Part shown: one piece after another, positions 1,092 to 41,993 of the stretch
Position numbering within the stretch: position 1 is the stretch's first letter
How the letters are laid out: every line of letters begins with the position of its first letter
Source: Shigella phage SH6
Length of the DNA stretch: 50,552 nt
Sequence record: KX828710
Direction: 5' to 3' (one strand)
Made by a program: the position numbers and the translations under genes
The notes under the pieces: generated by a model
Told to the model about the DNA's origin: nothing
Databases searched by the model: none
Seen by the model: the letters and a program-made list of their open reading frames with translations, nothing else

Positions 1092-1559
1092 ATGACGACC
1101 ATTACCGTATTTCTGGCTAAAGATGAATTGGACGGCGAAATGTCATTCTTCGCGTTCGAGCATAAAACAGGATCGCACTGGCACATGTACACTCATTACA
1201 CGGTCATCGCAATTGAGGCTTACGACGGCGATTTCACTAGCAAGCTGAGTAATTTTATTGAAGCCGTTAAGTCTAGCGAGGGCTGCGAGTGGAAAGAAGA
1301 TCATGAAGTTATGCGAATGTATGAGATGATCAATCCGGTTCGCCTTGAGTCTTTCGAGCTTGGTTCTGATGTGACCATTAAGGTGAGAAATGCGGGTGAG
1401 TTGTTGTCGGGGATGCGTGTGCTGACTGGTTACTCTGGCCGTAAAGTGTGGCGCACTGTATCTAAGATTCGCCAGCGATCGGCAACATGCTACAGCGTAT
1501 TCTTTGAAGATGGCTGGAATATGATGTCAGGAAGTGAAGTGAAGTATCTCACCAAATAG
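1092..1559 (+). CDS. hypothetical protein (155 aa)
   Basis: ORF track; ATGA overlap with upstream gene; ends at cassette motif. Confidence 0.55.
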   Translation: MTTITVFLAKDELDGEMSFFAFEHKTGSHWHMYTHYTVIAIEAYDGDFTSKLSNFIEAVKSSEGCEWKEDHEVMRMYEMINPVRLESFELGSDVTIKVRNAGELLSGMRVLTGYSGRKVWRTVSKIRQRSATCYSVFFEDGWNMMSGSEVKYLTK

Positions 1560-1599
1560 CACGAATTGTTAAAACAGGATCGGGGTATATTGCTATAGT
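1557..1599 (+). promoter_or_regulatory. intergenic cassette upstream of 1638..1868
   Basis: TAGCACGAATTGTTAAAAC; TGcTATAGT at +22; GGGG/CCCC hairpin. Confidence 0.5.
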
Positions 1600-1637
1600 T
1601 ACCCCATTGAAACGAGATACCAATCAGAGGATTCACC

Positions 1638-3718: not shown

Positions 3719-3867
3719 TGGCTGCATGGGTTTTGATTATCTTGATGAGTACCGGGCCGGATCACGTATACATGGAAAGTCAGCAATCATGCAATAAGGC
3801 TAGGGAAGCAATCGCAGAGAACAAGCCGTTCGGATATGAAGTAAAAACGATGTGCGTTAAACGATAG
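3718..3867 (+). CDS. putative small exported/membrane protein (49 aa)
   Basis: Own translation MAAWVLIILMSTGPDHVYMESQQSCNKAREAIAENKPFGYEVKTMCVKR; TAATG overlap; ends exactly at cassette motif. Confidence 0.35.
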   Translation: MAAWVLIILMSTGPDHVYMESQQSCNKAREAIAENKPFGYEVKTMCVKR

Positions 3868-3907
3868 CACGAATTGCTAAACCTTCCGCAAGGCCATTTG
3901 ATATAGT
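3865..3907 (+). promoter_or_regulatory. intergenic cassette upstream of 3948..4154
   Basis: TAGCACGAATTGCTAAACC; TGaTATAGT at +22 in hairpin AAGGCCA/TGGCCTT. Confidence 0.5.
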
Positions 3908-3947
3908 GGCCTTATTGAAGCAAGGCAACCAATCAGAGGAATCAGCT

Positions 3948-4154
3948 ATGGCTACACAACTCACTCAGTGGCAGATTTACGACAAGGCATCACGCCTACG
4001 CGAATCACTTCGCGGACTGACGCCGAACGACCGCATGGAGATTATCGGTCACGCATTGCACGAACTCACGCCGCCGGACGTAACCTATCATTCATGCGGC
4101 AATAAATTCTGGAACGTGACATTCGAGGTAAAGAAAGATGAGCAAAACTCATAA
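3948..4154 (+). CDS. hypothetical protein (68 aa)
   Basis: ATG at residue 15 of track ORF 3906..4154, preceded by CCAATCAGAGGAATC RBS. Confidence 0.5.
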   Translation: MATQLTQWQIYDKASRLRESLRGLTPNDRMEIIGHALHELTPPDVTYHSCGNKFWNVTFEVKKDEQNS

Positions 4155-4425
4155 GTTAAAAATCGCCCAGATACATTTCATCGGAGTAATGAATGGGACT
4201 AAAACGGCAGAGTTCCGCGTCAATGACCGAAACTTCCAGCCCGGCGATATCCTTGAGCTACGCGAGTTCGATCGTGACGAATTTACCGGGTGGGAAGTTC
4301 ACGCCAGGGTGTCCGATGTTACAGATGTGACACCATACATCAATCGCGGGTATGACGAGCAAGAATGCGACTTCACGCAATACGTGATGTTATCAATCAA
4401 ACCTTACAGGAAGGTTAGACCATGA
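4138..4425 (+). CDS. ASCH/DUF3850-like (PUA-fold) protein
   Basis: N-terminus KLKIAQIHFIGVMNGTKTAEFRVNDRNFQPGDILELREF matches the DUF3850/ASCH pattern as I recall it. Confidence 0.5.
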   Translation: MSKTHKLKIAQIHFIGVMNGTKTAEFRVNDRNFQPGDILELREFDRDEFTGWEVHARVSDVTDVTPYINRGYDEQECDFTQYVMLSIKPYRKVRP

Positions 4426-5224: not shown

Positions 5225-5427
5225 CAGCAGAAGATGCAGCGCGTGACGCGGTGGAAGGAATGCGCCCAAACACCTCCAGAATCGCACACTACTACAAATC
5301 TGAGGTGTCGGCAGTGCAATTGGTCCACGAAATTTTAAGGCTCCCACAAGTCGATTCAGCGCGCGTGGTGACGTGCTTAAAAAATTATTTTTGCATCACT
5401 ATTAAAACGAATAGCACGAATTGCTAA
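5209..5427 (+). CDS. hypothetical protein (72 aa)
   Basis: ORF track; ends at cassette motif. Confidence 0.45.
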   Translation: MATIMTAEDAARDAVEGMRPNTSRIAHYYKSEVSAVQLVHEILRLPQVDSARVVTCLKNYFCITIKTNSTNC

Positions 5428-5454
5428 AACCTATCAAGGGGAACGCGCTATGAT
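5412..5454 (+). promoter_or_regulatory. intergenic cassette upstream of 5485..5931
   Basis: TAGCACGAATTGCTAAAAC; TATGAT at +22 in GGGGAA/TTCCCC hairpin. Confidence 0.5.
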
Positions 5455-5484
5455 TCCCCTACACTAAAAAACGAGGGAACACTC

Positions 5485-5931
5485 ATGAAACATTTGATTT
5501 GCATTGAAACACCTAACGACCAGTACACTCTTCATGGCCTGGGTGTGTTCAAAGGTCACTACATTACCGCAGGAATTTACGATGCTCGTCGCGGAGATGG
5601 CGATCTAATGATTACGTCAAAAGAAGTAAATCCGTACATTATGCAGAATCTTGGCAATAACGAATATATGGCCTACGGCTGCAACGCGGTGTATAAGCAT
5701 ATCAAGATCCGCAAGCGTGTTGTGCGTGCATTCAAGAAGATTGCAATGAAATACTGGAAAATGAGCAAGAAAGATGCCGGACGTTGGGCGCGCAACGTTG
5801 CAGATTCATACTTCTATCGTAACGGCGAATCCTGCTACTTTCTGATCGATGAACTTATGGAAAACTACGGTGGCGACTTCAGCCAGGATAGCTTTGATGG
5901 CTGGGCCGACTATGAGATCAGTTGCTGGTAA
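5485..5931 (+). CDS. hypothetical protein (148 aa)
   Basis: ORF track; cassette and RBS upstream. Confidence 0.55.
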   Translation: MKHLICIETPNDQYTLHGLGVFKGHYITAGIYDARRGDGDLMITSKEVNPYIMQNLGNNEYMAYGCNAVYKHIKIRKRVVRAFKKIAMKYWKMSKKDAGRWARNVADSYFYRNGESCYFLIDELMENYGGDFSQDSFDGWADYEISCW

Positions 5932-5932
5932 T

Positions 5933-5974
5933 AGCACGAATTGCTAAAACTTGCTCAAGGGCATTTGTTAGAAT
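5933..5974 (+). promoter_or_regulatory. intergenic cassette upstream of 6015..6548
   Basis: TAGCACGAATTGCTAAAAC; TGtTAGAAT at +22 in GGGCATT/AATGCCC hairpin. Confidence 0.5.
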
Positions 5975-6014
5975 GCCCTTCGTTGAGTTAAGCAACCAAT
6001 CAGAGGAATAAATC

Positions 6015-6548
6015 ATGGATAAAATTACCATTTGGGGCCAGACAATCAACCTGTTTCTCGGCACGCGCCGCGTAGCAATCTTTGACTTTGACGGAACACT
6101 TAGCGATGGATCTGGTCGACTTCACCTGCTACCTACAAAGGATTTGCACTTAACTGAAAGCTGGTCCGAGTTTAACCGCGCGGCAATATTTGACAACCCT
6201 ATCCAAAGCACGATCGATGTGATGAACTCTATGTTTGCCGCTGGATATCATGTAATAATTTTAACCGGGCGAAGTGATGAGGTGCGTTACGCATCTGAGT
6301 TATGGCTTAAGCATCACGGCGCTCGATATGATTACTTAGTCATGCGACCGCATACCGACAACCGCAAAGACACGGTAATGAAAGAAGAGGCGGTGCGCGC
6401 GATCGGCATTGATAACATTCTGGCGGCTTGGGATGACTCGCCGCAAATTATTCCATTATTCAGATCGCTTGGGATAACCACTTACGCTGTAGTTGACTAT
6501 GGCGATAACGTTCACAATCATTTAAAATCTCACGGGGTAGATGAATGA
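6015..6548 (+). CDS. HAD-superfamily phosphatase (nucleotidase / polynucleotide 3'-phosphatase-like)
   Basis: HAD motif I FDFDGTL, motif III-like ILTGRS, motif IV AAWDDSP. Confidence 0.6.
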   Translation: MDKITIWGQTINLFLGTRRVAIFDFDGTLSDGSGRLHLLPTKDLHLTESWSEFNRAAIFDNPIQSTIDVMNSMFAAGYHVIILTGRSDEVRYASELWLKHHGARYDYLVMRPHTDNRKDTVMKEEAVRAIGIDNILAAWDDSPQIIPLFRSLGITTYAVVDYGDNVHNHLKSHGVDE

Positions 6549-6656
6549 ACCTATACGAATTTATTGCAGCGCATCCGGTATTAACGGTTATCATTCTGCT
6601 AATCATCAATCACACCATCATCAATGTGGCAAAATTATTTTTAGGGAGATACTGAC

Positions 6657-7229
6657 ATGAAAACAGCTATCATTTTAAACGGTGCGCCTGGCGCGGGAAA
6701 AGACACTATAGGGTGCATCCTGGCTGACACTTACGATCATGTAGCGCTACGCAGCTTTAAAGCTCCAATGTTTGAGATTGCCCGAGCAATCTTGGGTGAG
6801 ACTAATTTCGAGTATTTCATGTTCTTGTATGAGGACCGTCGCTATAAAGAAGAGCCAGCATCAATCCTGAATGGTAAAAGCCCGCGCCAGTTTATGATCT
6901 GGATTAGCGAGGAGGTCATCAAGCCGCAGTTCGGAAATCGCTTCTTCGGTATGCGAGCGGAAAGCAAGGTGAAAGAGTCGCACTCCCTTTCGGTATTTAC
7001 TGACGGTGGATTCAAAGATGAGATCCTACAAATGATTGAGGGTGATATCCAGGTTAAGCTATGTCGAATCCATCGCAACGGTTGCAGCTTTGATAACGAC
7101 AGCCGAGACTATATCTATCTTGACGACATGATCGGGGTTAACGGTTATCAGGAATGTGACTTCTTTTCTGTCGAAGGTCATCCAGAAATTACCGCTCAGC
7201 ACATAGCCGCCACGTTCATCAATAAATAG
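6657..7229 (+). CDS. deoxynucleoside monophosphate kinase-like P-loop kinase
   Basis: Walker A GAPGAGKDT and NGKSP motif, both resembling T4 gp1-type dNMP kinase. Confidence 0.55.
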   Translation: MKTAIILNGAPGAGKDTIGCILADTYDHVALRSFKAPMFEIARAILGETNFEYFMFLYEDRRYKEEPASILNGKSPRQFMIWISEEVIKPQFGNRFFGMRAESKVKESHSLSVFTDGGFKDEILQMIEGDIQVKLCRIHRNGCSFDNDSRDYIYLDDMIGVNGYQECDFFSVEGHPEITAQHIAATFINK

Positions 7230-7269
7230 CACTAATTGCTAAAACGTCGGTGGGGTGATTTGATATAGT
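7227..7269 (+). promoter_or_regulatory. intergenic cassette upstream of 7302..7511
   Basis: TAGCACTAATTGCTAAAAC (perfect TAGCA-N5-TGCTA palindrome); TGaTATAGT at +22. Confidence 0.5.
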
Positions 7270-7301
7270 TACCTCATCGACAACGAAGAGAGAAAATCGA
7301 A

Positions 7302-7511
7302 ATGATGGTATCAACTGATAAGTTTTTCACTTGCACTAAAACTTCTGAAGTATTCGAACTGGCTCATACTGATAATGGTGACTTCATGCATGACGGTTGC
7401 GACGTTTTCATTGAAGTGAAAGAAAGCGACTATGACGACGGAGTTTATTATAACCCGGCAGTGAACACTCAGTTTTTTACCCCGATCGAAGAGGAAGGAG
7501 AAGAAGCATGA
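7302..7511 (+). CDS. hypothetical protein (69 aa)
   Basis: ORF track; cassette upstream. Confidence 0.5.
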   Translation: MMVSTDKFFTCTKTSEVFELAHTDNGDFMHDGCDVFIEVKESDYDDGVYYNPAVNTQFFTPIEEEGEEA

Positions 7512-7852
7512 TCACGATTAACCTGTCAGATAAACAAGCGCGTGAAATCCTCGACACTATCGGTGAACAACTTCACGTAAAAGGCGCTACCGCTGAGATT
7601 CTTAACCAGATCGAAAGACAGCTAACCCCGGCATCAACGAATCAATCTGAGTTTGCAGCCTGGAAGAGCGAGCGAATCCTGCCAAATATCATCAAGGCAT
7701 GGAAGCGCAAGCATAAAAAAGAAATTAACGTTGAGGATTTATTCACCGATGAATTAAGTCCTTCAAAGGTTGCTAAATATCAGTTGCGATACATGGAGTT
7801 GGTTTTCAATCAGGTTTTAGGTGTTAATTCTTCATTTGGGAGAGGTAAGTAA
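7508..7852 (+). CDS. hypothetical protein (114 aa)
   Basis: ORF track; ATGA overlap. Confidence 0.5.
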   Translation: MITINLSDKQAREILDTIGEQLHVKGATAEILNQIERQLTPASTNQSEFAAWKSERILPNIIKAWKRKHKKEINVEDLFTDELSPSKVAKYQLRYMELVFNQVLGVNSSFGRGK

Positions 7853-39757: not shown

Positions 39758-40005
39758 TGAGCGAAAAAATTGTTCCTGTTAAATTAACTGAGCAAGGTTT
39801 ATGGCTTCTTTATCGCGCTACGTGCTGCGAGATTATGGAGCGAAACGGATTGACTCAGGATGTTATTGGTTGCGATCTGTGGGAGTTCACTAGCTCTCTT
39901 GATATGTCTTTCGAAGAGATAAAGAATGAATACATTGAGAATTGGCCCTCAATCATCCAAAAAGACGTAGAAGAACTTTCTTCTGAGATAATCACACAGC
40001 ACTAA
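39754..40005 (+). CDS. hypothetical protein (83 aa)
   Basis: ATG at residue 15 of track ORF 39712..40005; ATGA overlap with dam. Confidence 0.5.
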   Translation: MMSEKIVPVKLTEQGLWLLYRATCCEIMERNGLTQDVIGCDLWEFTSSLDMSFEEIKNEYIENWPSIIQKDVEELSSEIITQH

Positions 40006-40039
40006 TTGCTAAAACTACCCGGCGAAAGTCGGGTATAGT
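39996..40039 (+). promoter_or_regulatory. intergenic cassette upstream of 40072..40281
   Basis: AGCACTAATTGCTAAAAC; TATAGT at +22 in hairpin. Confidence 0.5.
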
Positions 40040-40071
40040 TATTTCATAGAAACAAAATGAGGAATCAGAAG

Positions 40072-40841: not shown

Positions 40842-41993
40842 ATGTCACAAGCTAAAATCACTACCGAGCAACTTATCGAAGAACGTATGAACGGACTTAC
40901 ACTTCGCGAGATCGCGGAAAAGTACGGTATGCACATTCGCACTGTCGAGGCGCGTCACGCAAAACTTGCAAAAGAAGGCCACTTCCACGGTAACGAGCAT
41001 GTTGCTAAAAACGTGCCGGAAGGCTTCATGGTAAAAGGCACTTCTACGATGATTCGCGGCGATGGGACTGAGGTAGTTCGCTGGGTTAAGACCGATCAGG
41101 ACCGTGAGAAGATTGCGGCAATGATGGAAGCTGCGCGTATTGCATTCTGTGAAGACCTGCCGCGAGCAAAGCCAACCGAGCTACTAACCTCGCAAGGGCT
41201 TACGACAGCGATGGGTAAGCTGGCACTCTATCCGGTATTCGATCTCCATATTGGCGCGCTTGCTCATAAGCATGAATGCGGTGAGAACTATTCCACCGAC
41301 GTAGCGGAAAAAGTGCTTAGCGACTTCTTTAATTACGCGATCGATATTGCGCCGAACGCAGAGAAGGCTGTTCTGTTAATCGGCGGCGACTTCCTTCACT
41401 CTGACGGCCTTGACGCTGTTACCCCGGCAAGTGGTCACGTTCTAGATCAGGATTCACGATATGCGAAATTGGTGCATGTAGCGATTCGTTCGGTGCGTCG
41501 CGCCATCGACAAAATGCTTATGAAACACAAAGAAGTCGAGGTCCAAGTTATCGAAGGGAACCACGATCAGTCTGGGATGATTTGGCTGCGAGCTGCAATG
41601 TCGGCATATTATGAAGACGAGCCGCGAGTATTCGTTGACGTTAGTCCTATGATTCTGCATAAGACTCGTTGGGGAAATACCTTGTTGGGATACACTCACG
41701 GGCACACTATGAAAAAGGCAGACACGCGACTTGCAGCAATGGCGGCAGATTTCCGATCAGACTTCGGCGAGAGCAAGTATGTGTATACTCATAGTGGTCA
41801 CTGGCATCACCAGACAATCACTGAGCACTCGCTTGGTATTGATGAAGTACACGGTCAGTTAGGCGCGAAAGACGCATACGCAGCACGCGGAGGGTGGCGC
41901 TCATATCGCCAGGCGGCTGTAATTGTTTACGATAAGCAGTTTGGGGAAATCGGTCGATTCATCTACCGTCCAGAAATGACAGGATCGCACTAA
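40842..41993 (+). CDS. calcineurin-like metallophosphoesterase (Mre11/SbcD-like motifs) with N-terminal HTH
   Basis: Motifs DLHIG, GGDFLH, GNHD, plus His-rich C-terminus; N-terminal LTLREIAEKYGMHIRTVEARHAKL HTH. Confidence 0.6.
   Translation: MSQAKITTEQLIEERMNGLTLREIAEKYGMHIRTVEARHAKLAKEGHFHGNEHVAKNVPEGFMVKGTSTMIRGDGTEVVRWVKTDQDREKIAAMMEAARIAFCEDLPRAKPTELLTSQGLTTAMGKLALYPVFDLHIGALAHKHECGENYSTDVAEKVLSDFFNYAIDIAPNAEKAVLLIGGDFLHSDGLDAVTPASGHVLDQDSRYAKLVHVAIRSVRRAIDKMLMKHKEVEVQVIEGNHDQSGMIWLRAAMSAYYEDEPRVFVDVSPMILHKTRWGNTLLGYTHGHTMKKADTRLAAMAADFRSDFGESKYVYTHSGHWHHQTITEHSLGIDEVHGQLGAKDAYAARGGWRSYRQAAVIVYDKQFGEIGRFIYRPEMTGSH

Follow-up and report, generated by a model that had tools for sequence, protein, structure and literature searches.

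The phosphatase–kinase locus

In the early region of Shigella phage SH6, a gene for a HAD phosphatase is followed by one for a P-loop kinase. Such a pair could serve nucleotide metabolism, or the two proteins could act together like the kinase and phosphatase halves of T4 polynucleotide kinase (Pnkp) and heal cleaved nucleic acid ends. The window analysed here is the whole 50,552-nucleotide stretch of sequence record KX828710. An earlier note on this DNA had favored metabolism but left the question open. Our reading is that the pair most likely processes nucleotides freed from host DNA, not broken nucleic acid ends, with a probability of about 0.6.

The window represents a T1-like Tunavirus with 94–96% identity to phages CLB_P3, SA30RD and LeonhardEuler. 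The phage carrying both open reading frames (ORFs) belongs to the T1-like Drexlerviridae, and both genes are conserved. The two ORFs that the earlier note had described are present at exactly the positions it gave, and the four motifs that it had quoted can all be read in the sequence (Table 1). The pair sits amid small plus-strand ORFs, 5' of the terminase genes (9067, 9640), which is consistent with the proposed placement in the early region. What had been overlooked is that the 108-nt gap between the two genes contains a small hydrophobic ORF that bridges them. Its start overlaps the stop codon of the phosphatase gene (ATGA), and it ends 1 nt ahead of the kinase ATG. The counterpart of this ORF in phage LeonhardEuler is an annotated CDS, bas13_0075. 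The phosphatase gene, the tiny hydrophobic ORF and the kinase gene probably form a single early transcription unit, as part of the explanation to which the probability above applies.

Table 1. Features of the phosphatase–kinase unit and of the metallophosphoesterase gene in the window.
Feature	Position (nt)	Strand	Size or residues	Description
Box and hairpin, upstream	5933..5980	+		Conserved box AGCACGAATTGCTAAAAC, then hairpin with -10-like TAGAAT; upstream boundary of the unit
HAD phosphatase ORF	6015..6548	+	177 aa	ATG start
HAD motif FDFDGTL	6081-6101		aa 23-29	
HAD motif AAWDDSP	6423-6443		aa 137-143	
Small hydrophobic ORF	6545..6655	+	36 codons	MNLYEFIAAHPVLTVIILLIINHTIINVAKLFLGRY; bridges the HAD and kinase genes
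P-loop kinase ORF	6657..7229	+	190 aa	ATG start
Kinase motif GAPGAGKDT	6681-6707		aa 9-17	Walker A
Kinase motif NGKSP	6870-6884		aa 72-76	
Box and hairpin, downstream	7229..7275	+		Next copy (AGCACTAATTGCTAAAAC ... TATAGT); downstream boundary of the unit
Metallophosphoesterase (MPE) ORF	40842..41993	+	383 aa	HTH and metallophosphoesterase domain; phrog_704 ‘DNA repair exonuclease’, 1.1e-157

The HAD phosphatase

The phosphatase has the characteristics of the HAD superfamily, namely motif I (DxDx[TV]), motif II (S/T), motif III (K/R), motif IV (DD) and a Rossmann-like fold, and homologues were found in 2418 phage records. It matches the Pfam family HAD_PNKP (PF25109; E = 1.1e-16, 61.7 bits against a cut-off of 27.6, profile positions 3–141 of 143) and phrog_415 (1.2e-66), which T5 Dmp, a deoxynucleoside 5'-monophosphatase, also matches over its full length (3.6e-57). 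Its initial assignment as a HAD phosphatase was right. The key residues are D24-x-D26-G-T (motif I), R35, R86, R111, D115, K118/D119/K123 and D140-D141. D24, D26, R35, R86, D119, D140 and D141 align with the essential residues of the T4 Pnkp phosphatase, which we take to be D165, D167, R176, R213, D254, D277 and D278. The catalytic residues were also considered as a way to discriminate between 3'- and 5'-phosphatases, but this was rejected because T4 PseT, T5 Dmp and the T1 HAD are all identical at these positions. Judged by its sequence, the protein is related to the phosphatase domain of T4 Pnkp but stands alone, and its clade includes both that domain and T5 Dmp.

The T1 HAD is 27–32% identical to the phosphatase domains of T4 PseT (phrog_505; PDB 1LTQ, 5UJ0) and of Pnkp1 from the Pnkp1-Rnl-Hen1 system (4XRP). 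Unlike PseT, it stands alone, without an AAA_33 Pnk kinase domain, and relative to both proteins it has an additional conserved C-terminal tail (HxHLKSHGV) and a conserved cap insert of ~14 residues (HRLHLLPTKDLHLTESWSEFNRA; pattern HR..LLP..W..FN.A..D). The insert is common to T1-type HADs, P1 Pap and the Krischvirus HAD, partial in T5 Dmp and absent from T4 PseT. T5 Dmp falls into PHROG 415 together with the T1 HAD and agrees with it in the catalytic residues and in some of the cap insert but, unlike it, does not match Pfam HAD_PNKP. When the two are compared by BLASTP, motif I alone aligns (E = 0.055), while hhalign gives an E-value of 8e-4 and a probability of 25% over 82 columns. Pairwise, the T1 HAD is nearer to T4 Pnkp and Pnkp1, in their polynucleotide 3'-phosphatase domains, than to Dmp.

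Two relatives are found in quite different surroundings. P1 Pap (‘putative acid phosphatase’) is 38% identical to the T1 HAD (2e-18), has the same cap insert and lacks a neighboring kinase. Krischvirus GoldenSnicker, a T4-like phage that already has pseT (Pnkp) and rnlA (RNA ligase), encodes an extra T1-type HAD joined onto nrdB, with its start overlapping the nrdB stop codon.

The kinase

The kinase has homologues in 1427 phage records and matches phrog_139 ‘dNMP kinase’ (2.1e-46), the same PHROG that includes T4 gp1 and T5 Dnk, both of which are characterized biochemically. Like those of the HAD, this match lies well outside what chance would produce. It has the gp1-type fold and a Walker A motif of the form G-x-x-x-x-GKD[TF]. 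Its key features are the Walker A sequence G-A-G-K15-D16-T, S75-P-R77, T-D116-G-G-F...E122 and the lid D148-S-R150, and the motifs GKDT, S-x-R and D...E are common to the T1 kinase, T4 gp1 and T5 Dnk. The similarity to gp1 and Dnk reaches past the P-loop, whereas that to T4 Pnk is made up of 25 P-loop columns only. Those BFVD neighbors of the kinase that have names are mostly dNMP kinases and in no case polynucleotide kinases, and its structural neighbors use a phosphate group as the acceptor of the new phosphate, not a hydroxyl. AAA_33, the Pnk-type P-loop kinase domain in Pfam, is absent from both the HAD protein and its partner kinase. The description of this ORF as a dNMP-kinase-like P-loop kinase is thereby upheld, with the fold of gp1 and Dnk and not that of Pnk.

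The T1 kinase differs from T4 gp1 (PDB 1DEK; Pfam DNMK, PF21448) and T5 Dnk in being ~50–60 residues shorter, without the insertion found in T4 and T5. It has no match to Pfam DNMK at E ≤ 0.1; for comparison, T4 gp1 matches at 3e-107 and T5 Dnk at 4e-11, in its C-terminal half only. Where T4 and T5 have D-T-R or D-V-R (D-x-R), the T1-type kinase has an invariant T-D-G-G-F, and a D-S-R lid replaces the T4/T5 lid motif. Since there is no DNMK match, D-x-R is replaced by D-G-G and the lid is D-S-R, the phosphate acceptor of the kinase could differ from that of T4 and T5. Sequence comparison places the protein in a separate subfamily, together with the N4-like, rV5-like and Autographiviridae kinases. 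No bacterial homologues were found in one scan of genome contigs, a weak negative made with a single degenerate pattern.

Synteny, fusions and a metallophosphoesterase

Obligate synteny and natural fusions strongly support the earlier suspicion that the kinase and the phosphatase act jointly. The kinase is found downstream on the same strand in 80/80 HAD loci, with insertions of 0–2 kb between the two, and the HAD is upstream in 68/80 kinase loci, the other 12/80 being without a HAD; these loci are mostly from related Drexlerviridae and are therefore not phylogenetically independent. Occurrences of the pair span Drexlerviridae, Kagunavirus and Autographiviridae. Two natural HAD–kinase fusion proteins (P0218 and P0235) were identified, with a conserved linker in both, and P0218 is present on three contigs. 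In the fusions, the phosphatase precedes the kinase, the reverse of the domain order in T4 Pnkp, and the kinase belongs to a different fold subfamily. P0218 was recovered by exact-sequence look-up, and a search of IMG/VR for its context returned no relative.

A candidate third member of the module is the 383-aa MPE protein, which gives weak matches to the Metallophos and HTH families in Pfam. Its gene is unlinked to the pair in the window but lies directly upstream of it in many other phages. MPE, HAD and kinase are contiguous in 32/80 and 35/80 loci (two locus counts), and the same order is found in K1ind3 and Aeromonas ST21. A 45% identical MPE homologue is encoded immediately after the fusion P0218. 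In Vibrio and Aeromonas Autographiviridae, the order is exonuclease, endonuclease, (MPE, HAD), kinase, and kinase-only loci have replication-module genes as neighbors, namely those for exonuclease, MPE, endonuclease VII and DNA ligase. The T1 MPE was considered as a homologue of the T5 A1 metallophosphatase, but BLASTP shows only the GNHD motif, and the two are regarded as analogous.

In the Vequintavirinae, the kinase is clustered with an NT5C-type HAD nucleotidase, thyA/thyX and RNR. This kinase-adjacent HAD was rejected as a member of the T1-type clade, as hhalign detects no similarity between them and Pfam assigns it to NT5C. It is read as a non-orthologous replacement of the kinase partner.

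Ligases and tRNA genes

A heal-and-seal RNA repair system encodes a ligase together with its healing enzymes, and here the T1 pair differs from T4 PseT and from the Pnkp1 system in having no partner ligase. The annotated genes of a relative with 94% identity include no ligase, and no ligase Pfam domain was found in the larger non-structural ORFs. A phmmer comparison of all window ORFs of at least 40 aa with five phage RNA/DNA ligases gave no match, and there are no tRNA genes in the window. The claim that no ligase is evident thus holds at the sensitivity that these searches can attain. However, the use that the earlier note made of this absence, as an argument for nucleotide metabolism, is weak by itself. 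T1-like phages depend on host replication enzymes, and a host ligase could therefore seal healed DNA nicks.

A possible role in nucleotide salvage

T1 and TLS break down the host genome and reuse its nucleotides, by enzymes that have not been identified (PMC11447400). In T5, the A1 metallophosphatase alone suffices for host DNA degradation, and Dmp handles the resulting dNMPs (bioRxiv 10.64898/2026.04.02.716235). T5 discards host nucleotides where T1 reuses them. The authors of the KanT1 paper independently proposed that both genes of the pair boost the nucleotide supply (PMC13164509). Otherwise, our literature search for assayed T1-type enzymes or an anti-defense role turned up annotation-level statements only.

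The scheme that we favor builds on the observed folds, catalytic motifs, obligate synteny, fusions and gene contexts; from these we infer what the HAD and the kinase act on, which phosphate the phosphatase attacks and whether the two proteins interact physically. The kinase would move the γ-phosphate of ATP to deoxynucleoside 5'-monophosphates, and the dNDPs so made would return material from host DNA breakdown to dNTP synthesis in a phage without a DNA polymerase of its own. The HAD is predicted to be a Mg-dependent phosphatase that forms an aspartyl-phosphate, with D24 as the nucleophile and D26 as the general acid/base, and to act on deoxynucleotide phosphomonoesters. Its targets may be mononucleotides, bisphosphates or fragments left by degradation, which it would strip of 3'-phosphates, or else selected 5'-dNMPs, which it would trim and thereby balance the pool. 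With the MPE as the nuclease upstream in many relatives, the result would be a salvage cassette running from nuclease to phosphatase to kinase, parallel to T5, where A1 and the HAD nucleotidase Dmp (with Dnk) process host DNA. Several points speak against the scheme. The HAD is closer in pairwise sequence to polynucleotide 3'-phosphatases than to T5 Dmp, and the kinase, as a distinct subfamily, could have a different acceptor. A 5'-dNMPase and a dNMP kinase that share a transcript or a polypeptide would create a futile cycle, unless their specificities differ. Moreover, the fusion of a kinase with a phosphatase is exactly the logic of Pnkp and counts against salvage.

Alternative explanations

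The main alternative is an end-healing enzyme that is split or, in some phages, fused; the natural fusions, which recreate a bifunctional kinase/phosphatase, speak for it. Here, the P-loop protein would phosphorylate the 5'-OH ends left where host or anticodon nucleases break DNA or RNA, and the HAD would take off 3'-phosphates or 2',3'-cyclic phosphates, with host ligases (LigA, for DNA nicks) sealing the products; the pair would be an analogue of Pnkp built on a dNMP-kinase fold. That the HAD passes the HAD_PNKP cut-off and keeps all of the T4 catalytic residues in our list fits this idea, as does the MPE that often precedes the pair, since this domain is also used in bacterial Pnkp, and the loss of the D-x-R arginine of the T4/T5 dNMP kinases leaves room for another acceptor. 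We nevertheless consider end-healing unlikely. The kinase has only its P-loop in common with T4 Pnk, without an AAA_33 match, and resembles enzymes that act on phosphates, not hydroxyls; its homologues elsewhere are located in clusters with thyA, RNR and nucleotidase genes; and neither ligase nor tRNA genes were found in the window or its relatives. A phage with a complete Pnkp and RnlA retains a T1-type HAD beside nrdB, and T5 Dmp, within this HAD clade, is a mononucleotidase. Between the two possibilities raised at the outset, the kinase fold, the gene contexts, the HAD at nrdB and the PHROG shared with Dmp thus support metabolism better, and end-healing is weakened.

The two enzymes might instead oppose each other on one small nucleotide, as a rheostat that remodels dNMP and dNTP pools or as a counter-defense that destroys or alters nucleotide-derived immune signals, and not simply salvage nucleotides. 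T5 Dmp remodels dNTP pools and is toxic when expressed by itself, and phages with mutations in it escape Clover, a defense that senses dNTPs; regulatory bifunctional enzymes are built in the same way, with kinase and phosphatase on a single chain, and expression of the module from the early region also fits. This explanation appears quite improbable, as salvage accounts more simply for the association with nucleases and the replication module, and no match to known anti-defense families was found (indirectly, via Pfam, PHROGs and NCBIfam). It is highly improbable that the adjacency is inherited synteny only and that the roles are unrelated, for example, an acid phosphatase like P1 Pap next to an independent dNMP kinase. 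P1 Pap and the Krischvirus HAD indeed have no adjoining kinase, some kinase loci lack the HAD, and T5 dmp and dnk are ~21 kb apart. Against this stand the kinase downstream of every HAD examined in spite of the insertions, the recurrence of the pair in three phage groups and the conserved linker of the two fusion proteins.

Implications

On the salvage reading, the pair is a fairly ordinary, widely mis-annotated module. The HAD protein lacks a kinase domain, yet thousands of phage records name it “polynucleotide kinase” or “3'-phosphatase, 5'-polynucleotide kinase”, and correcting this annotation prevents false inference of RNA repair in T1-like phages. The cassette of MPE, HAD and dNMP-kinase-like protein provides concrete candidates for the long-known host DNA degradation and nucleotide recycling of T1, with the MPE as the candidate nuclease by analogy to T5 A1. 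Because bacterial defenses such as Clover sense phage enzymes that remodel the nucleotide pool, the module is also relevant to the defense field. More tentatively, the pair and the two fusions might represent an unrecognized type of end-healing enzyme, in which a dNMP-kinase fold was recruited as the 5'-kinase partner of a T4-type 3'-phosphatase, or a rheostat with a kinase and a phosphatase for a single nucleotide. If end-healing were true, host ligases and a metallophosphoesterase dedicated to the task would join the pair in mending phage DNA or RNA after cleavage by host defenses.

Boundary elements

The unit is flanked by two copies of a conserved box followed by a hairpin (Table 1), the upstream one of which is probably a promoter or regulatory element. 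These elements were detected by eye and by pattern search, not by standard scans: a consensus sigma-70 scan made no call at the upstream copy, and the counts from sigma-70 and terminator scans around the unit were no better than in shuffled sequence. The pattern search found six copies on the plus strand, where 0.43 would be expected by chance. In alignments, the box is palindromic and invariant, and the hairpin shows five covarying pairs. Phage SA30RD has a ‘terminator’ annotation at the position of the downstream copy.

The adjacent HAD phosphatase and P-loop kinase genes of SH6 are best read as a nucleotide-metabolism module, with a probability of about 0.6. By sequence, both proteins belong to known kinds of enzyme, and the pair was previously annotated in many genomes, in part wrongly. 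A role for the two genes in nucleotide supply has been suggested before, for phage KanT1 (PMC13164509). What is new here is that the "polynucleotide kinase" label of the HAD is shown to be unfounded, that the HAD clade is tied to T5 Dmp and to an nrdB-adjacent HAD, and that a separate D-G-G/D-S-R kinase subfamily is defined. Natural HAD–kinase fusions and a recurrent metallophosphoesterase (MPE)–HAD–kinase cassette are also new.

The Locus

Around the pair, 2.2 kb of sequence match the Escherichia phages CLB_P3, SA30RD and LeonhardEuler (Tunavirus, Drexlerviridae) with 94–96% identity, which makes the window the genome of a T1-like siphovirus. The two genes belong to a series of small + strand ORFs located upstream of the terminase genes (9067 and 9640). 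Both ORFs proposed in an earlier note were confirmed by an ORF check, and the four motifs quoted there (FDFDGTL, AAWDDSP, GAPGAGKDT and NGKSP) were all read at the expected codons. Between the two genes is a small hydrophobic ORF that has an ATGA overlap with the HAD stop codon and ends 1 nt before the kinase ATG, an arrangement that predicts translational coupling to both. Other early + strand ORFs nearby encode a DUF3850/ASCH-like domain (4138–4425; Pfam, 2.2e-15) and a DUF7180 (7508–7852; Pfam, 5.5e-31).

Copies of a two-part intergenic element flank this block. It consists of an invariant palindromic box, TAGCAC[GT]AATTGCTAAAAC, with the inverted repeat TAGCA/TGCTA, followed about 7 nt downstream by a hairpin of 7–9 bp with TGnTATAGT (a TATAGT-like hexamer) in the loop and 3' arm. 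The box occurs six times on the + strand of the window, against 0.43 expected, and alignment of the copies revealed compensatory changes at five stem pairs. Since two boxes bracket them, the HAD, small ORF and kinase look like a single transcription unit. It may serve as an early promoter combined with an operator, as a site of RNA processing or as a terminator; two copies are called terminators in the SA30RD annotation.

Features of the SH6 window and of a Krischvirus relative
Feature	Coordinates	Strand	Remarks
HAD phosphatase	6015-6548	+	177 aa
Hydrophobic ORF	6545-6655	+	36 codons; fills the 108-nt HAD–kinase spacer; annotated in LeonhardEuler
P-loop kinase	6657-7229	+	190 aa
Box + hairpin element	1556-1615	+	pattern search
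Box + hairpin element	3864-3923	+	pattern search
Box + hairpin element	5411-5470	+	pattern search
Box + hairpin element	5931-5990	+	box at 5939; upstream flank of HAD–small ORF–kinase block
Box + hairpin element	7226-7285	+	box at 7234; downstream flank of the same block
Box + hairpin element	39996-40055	+	pattern search
HTH (N-terminal) + MPE protein	40842-41993	+	383 aa; phrog_704 "DNA repair exonuclease"
T1-type stand-alone HAD, Escherichia phage GoldenSnicker (Krischvirus)	L179:3998-4474		start overlaps nrdB stop codon

The HAD Phosphatase

The assignment as a HAD phosphatase is borne out by matches to Pfam HAD_PNKP (61.7 bits, cut-off 27.6; E = 1.1e-16) and phrog_415 (1.2e-66). By sequence, the only solved structures retrieved were a lipid-transfer LNS2 domain and the phosphatase parts of T4 Pnkp (1ltq, 5uj0) and Pnkp1 (4xrp, 1.7e-7). 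Residues 16–159 align to 157–296 of T4 PseT with 27% identity (BLASTP, 7e-10; hhalign, 4.5e-11). Conserved in the family alignments are D24, D26, G27, T28, R35, R86, R111, D115, K118, D119, K123, D140 and D141, with T4 counterparts D165, D167, R176, R213, R246, D250, K253, D254, K258, D277 and D278.

There is no kinase domain in the HAD protein, so the labels "polynucleotide kinase" and "3'-phosphatase, 5'-polynucleotide kinase" are over-annotations. Public records give the kinase-less HAD these names as well as "kinase" and "putative morphogenetic protein", and the mis-annotation among relatives is systematic. The last label probably derives from the pmg genes flanking P1 Pap, a homologue with 38% identity. 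phrog_415 itself is labelled "polynucleotide kinase", yet it includes T5 Dmp, the classical deoxynucleoside 5'-monophosphatase.

Dmp matches phrog_415 over its whole length (3.6e-57), while PseT, which belongs to phrog_505, matches at only 3e-24. Pairwise, Dmp and the HAD align only around motif I, but in a multiple alignment they have all the listed catalytic residues and part of the cap insertion in common, and the catalytic set is thus uninformative about 3'- versus 5'-specificity. Unlike PseT, T1-type HADs contain a strongly conserved stretch inserted behind motif I (HRLHLLPTKDLHLTESWSEFNRA) and, at the C-terminus, a conserved tail (HxHLKSHGV). These features define a clade that also holds P1 Pap and the Krischvirus protein. 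Because of this clade and the likeness to Dmp, the HAD is not simply read as a polynucleotide 3'-phosphatase. The cap insert (residues 35–57) and tail (164–177) are almost invariant; pLDDT is below 50 at 39–50 and 164–177 in the predicted structure, and in a multiple alignment the tail lines up with GPELHG in the linker of the HAD–kinase fusions. Both may be docking or substrate-gating elements.

The Kinase

The proposed dNMP-kinase-like P-loop protein indeed matches phrog_139, "deoxynucleoside monophosphate kinase" (2.1e-46), which also contains T4 gp1 and T5 Dnk; Pfam and NCBIfam gave no significant match. Of the BFVD viral protein structures that match it and carry a name, most are labelled dNMP kinase and none polynucleotide kinase. 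The kinase profile aligns with T5 Dnk over 51 columns (9e-9) and with T4 gp1 over 73 (2e-5), but with T4 PseT over just 25 P-loop columns.

Family invariants are N8, G14-K15-D16, Y58, R77, S84-E85, K89, D116-G-G118-F119, E122 and D148-S149-R150. By eye, S75-P-R77-x-x-M...S-E-E resembles S-P-R-K-M-L...G-T-E of T5 and S-V-R-R-L-M...G-T-D of T4, and the D116...E122 pair has a counterpart in both. However, the T1-type subfamily differs from the T4 and T5 enzymes in not reaching the Pfam DNMK threshold, in having D-G-G in place of D-x-R, and in a D-S-R in the lid. The phage family comprises 4544 representatives (50% identity) at E < 1e-3, and 1427 phage records have the kinase; a single scan of bacterial genomes found none, a weak negative. 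An uncultured-phage protein of 297 aa labelled nucleoside 2-deoxyribosyltransferase (A0A6J5RPH7; BFVD rank 37) matches the kinase model with E = 1.6e-6 and 21% identity, and may be a further fusion of this fold with a nucleotide-metabolism domain.

Coupling of the Two Genes

A T1-type HAD is found upstream on the same strand in 68 of 80 IMG/VR loci retrieved by the kinase profile. In each of the 80 loci retrieved by the HAD profile, the kinase gene follows downstream in the same orientation, either overlapping the HAD gene or separated from it by up to about 2 kb, although these loci are mostly Drexlerviridae and the synteny counts are not independent. The pair is also present in Kagunavirus K1ind3 and an Aeromonas phage of the Autographiviridae. 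Two representatives within the kinase family are single-chain fusions: P0218 (403 aa; HAD_PNKP at 3–142, kinase at 210–394) and P0235 (461 aa; 3–148 and 258–455). They share the linker AAG..M.K.G.F.GPELHG, and P0218 occurs on three contigs of a phage of about 60 kb, which argues that the fusions are real proteins. They have no counterpart of the 36-codon ORF.

Nucleotide Metabolism or End Healing

The earlier note offered nucleotide metabolism and T4 Pnkp-like end healing as alternatives, and kinase relatives, gene contexts and phage biology favour the former. Characterised relatives of the kinase phosphorylate dNMPs, and its next structural neighbour, PMK, likewise phosphorylates a phosphate group. 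Homologues in unrelated phages (35–44% identity) lie in nucleotide or nuclease gene contexts. Vequintavirinae have the kinase, an NT5C-family (5'(3')-deoxyribonucleotidase) HAD, then thyA/thyX and RNR; hhalign detects no similarity between that HAD and the T1-type, so the kinase–nucleotidase pairing recurs with a non-orthologous partner. Vibrio Autographiviridae have the order exonuclease–endonuclease–kinase, and kinase-only loci neighbour exonuclease, MPE, endonuclease VII and DNA ligase genes. T4-like GoldenSnicker encodes pseT and rnlA as well as a T1-type HAD with variant motifs (DLDFT, FEDNP), and this gene content, with the HAD start overlapping the nrdB stop codon, indicates that the clade is not redundant with Pnkp and is associated with dNTP synthesis.

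That the pair is an end-healing enzyme is unlikely, though several observations point that way. In sequence, the HAD resembles the phosphatase domains of T4 Pnkp and Pnkp1 more closely than it does Dmp, the fusions reproduce the logic of Pnkp, and the D-x-R arginine is lost from the kinase subfamily. A 5'-dNMPase fused to a dNMP kinase would also be futile. Within the metabolic reading, a 3'-specific HAD would escape such a cycle; its substrates would be 3'-dNMP, pdNp or 3'-P-blocked fragments. Against end healing, the window has neither ligase nor tRNA genes (annotation of a relative, tRNA, Pfam and phmmer searches), leaving no sealing partner. The missing ligase, already noticed earlier, counts towards metabolism but is not decisive, since nicks in DNA, once healed, could be closed by LigA of the host.

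A still slimmer prospect, drawing on escape from the Clover defence at the T5 Dmp locus, is a role as pool rheostat or in counter-defence. The supposed functional link between HAD and kinase holds up on synteny, fusions and recurrence in other phage groups; mere synteny is a very improbable account of their adjacency.

The Metallophosphoesterase

A phrog_704 protein of 380 aa, with HTH and MPE parts, lies directly upstream of the pair in 32–35 loci per set of 80 and in K1ind3; in Aeromonas phage ST21, a different MPE (phrog_221) takes that position. Fusion P0218 is followed directly downstream by a phrog_704 protein (45% identity). In the window, the MPE gene is distant from the pair, the same arrangement as in KanT1 (PMC13164509). 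T1 and TLS break down the chromosome of their host and recycle its nucleotides, with the responsible enzymes unassigned (PMC11447400). In T5, the A1 metallophosphatase alone suffices to degrade host DNA and Dmp handles dNMPs (bioRxiv 10.64898/2026.04.02.716235). By analogy with A1, the MPE is a candidate for the host-DNA-degrading nuclease of T1.
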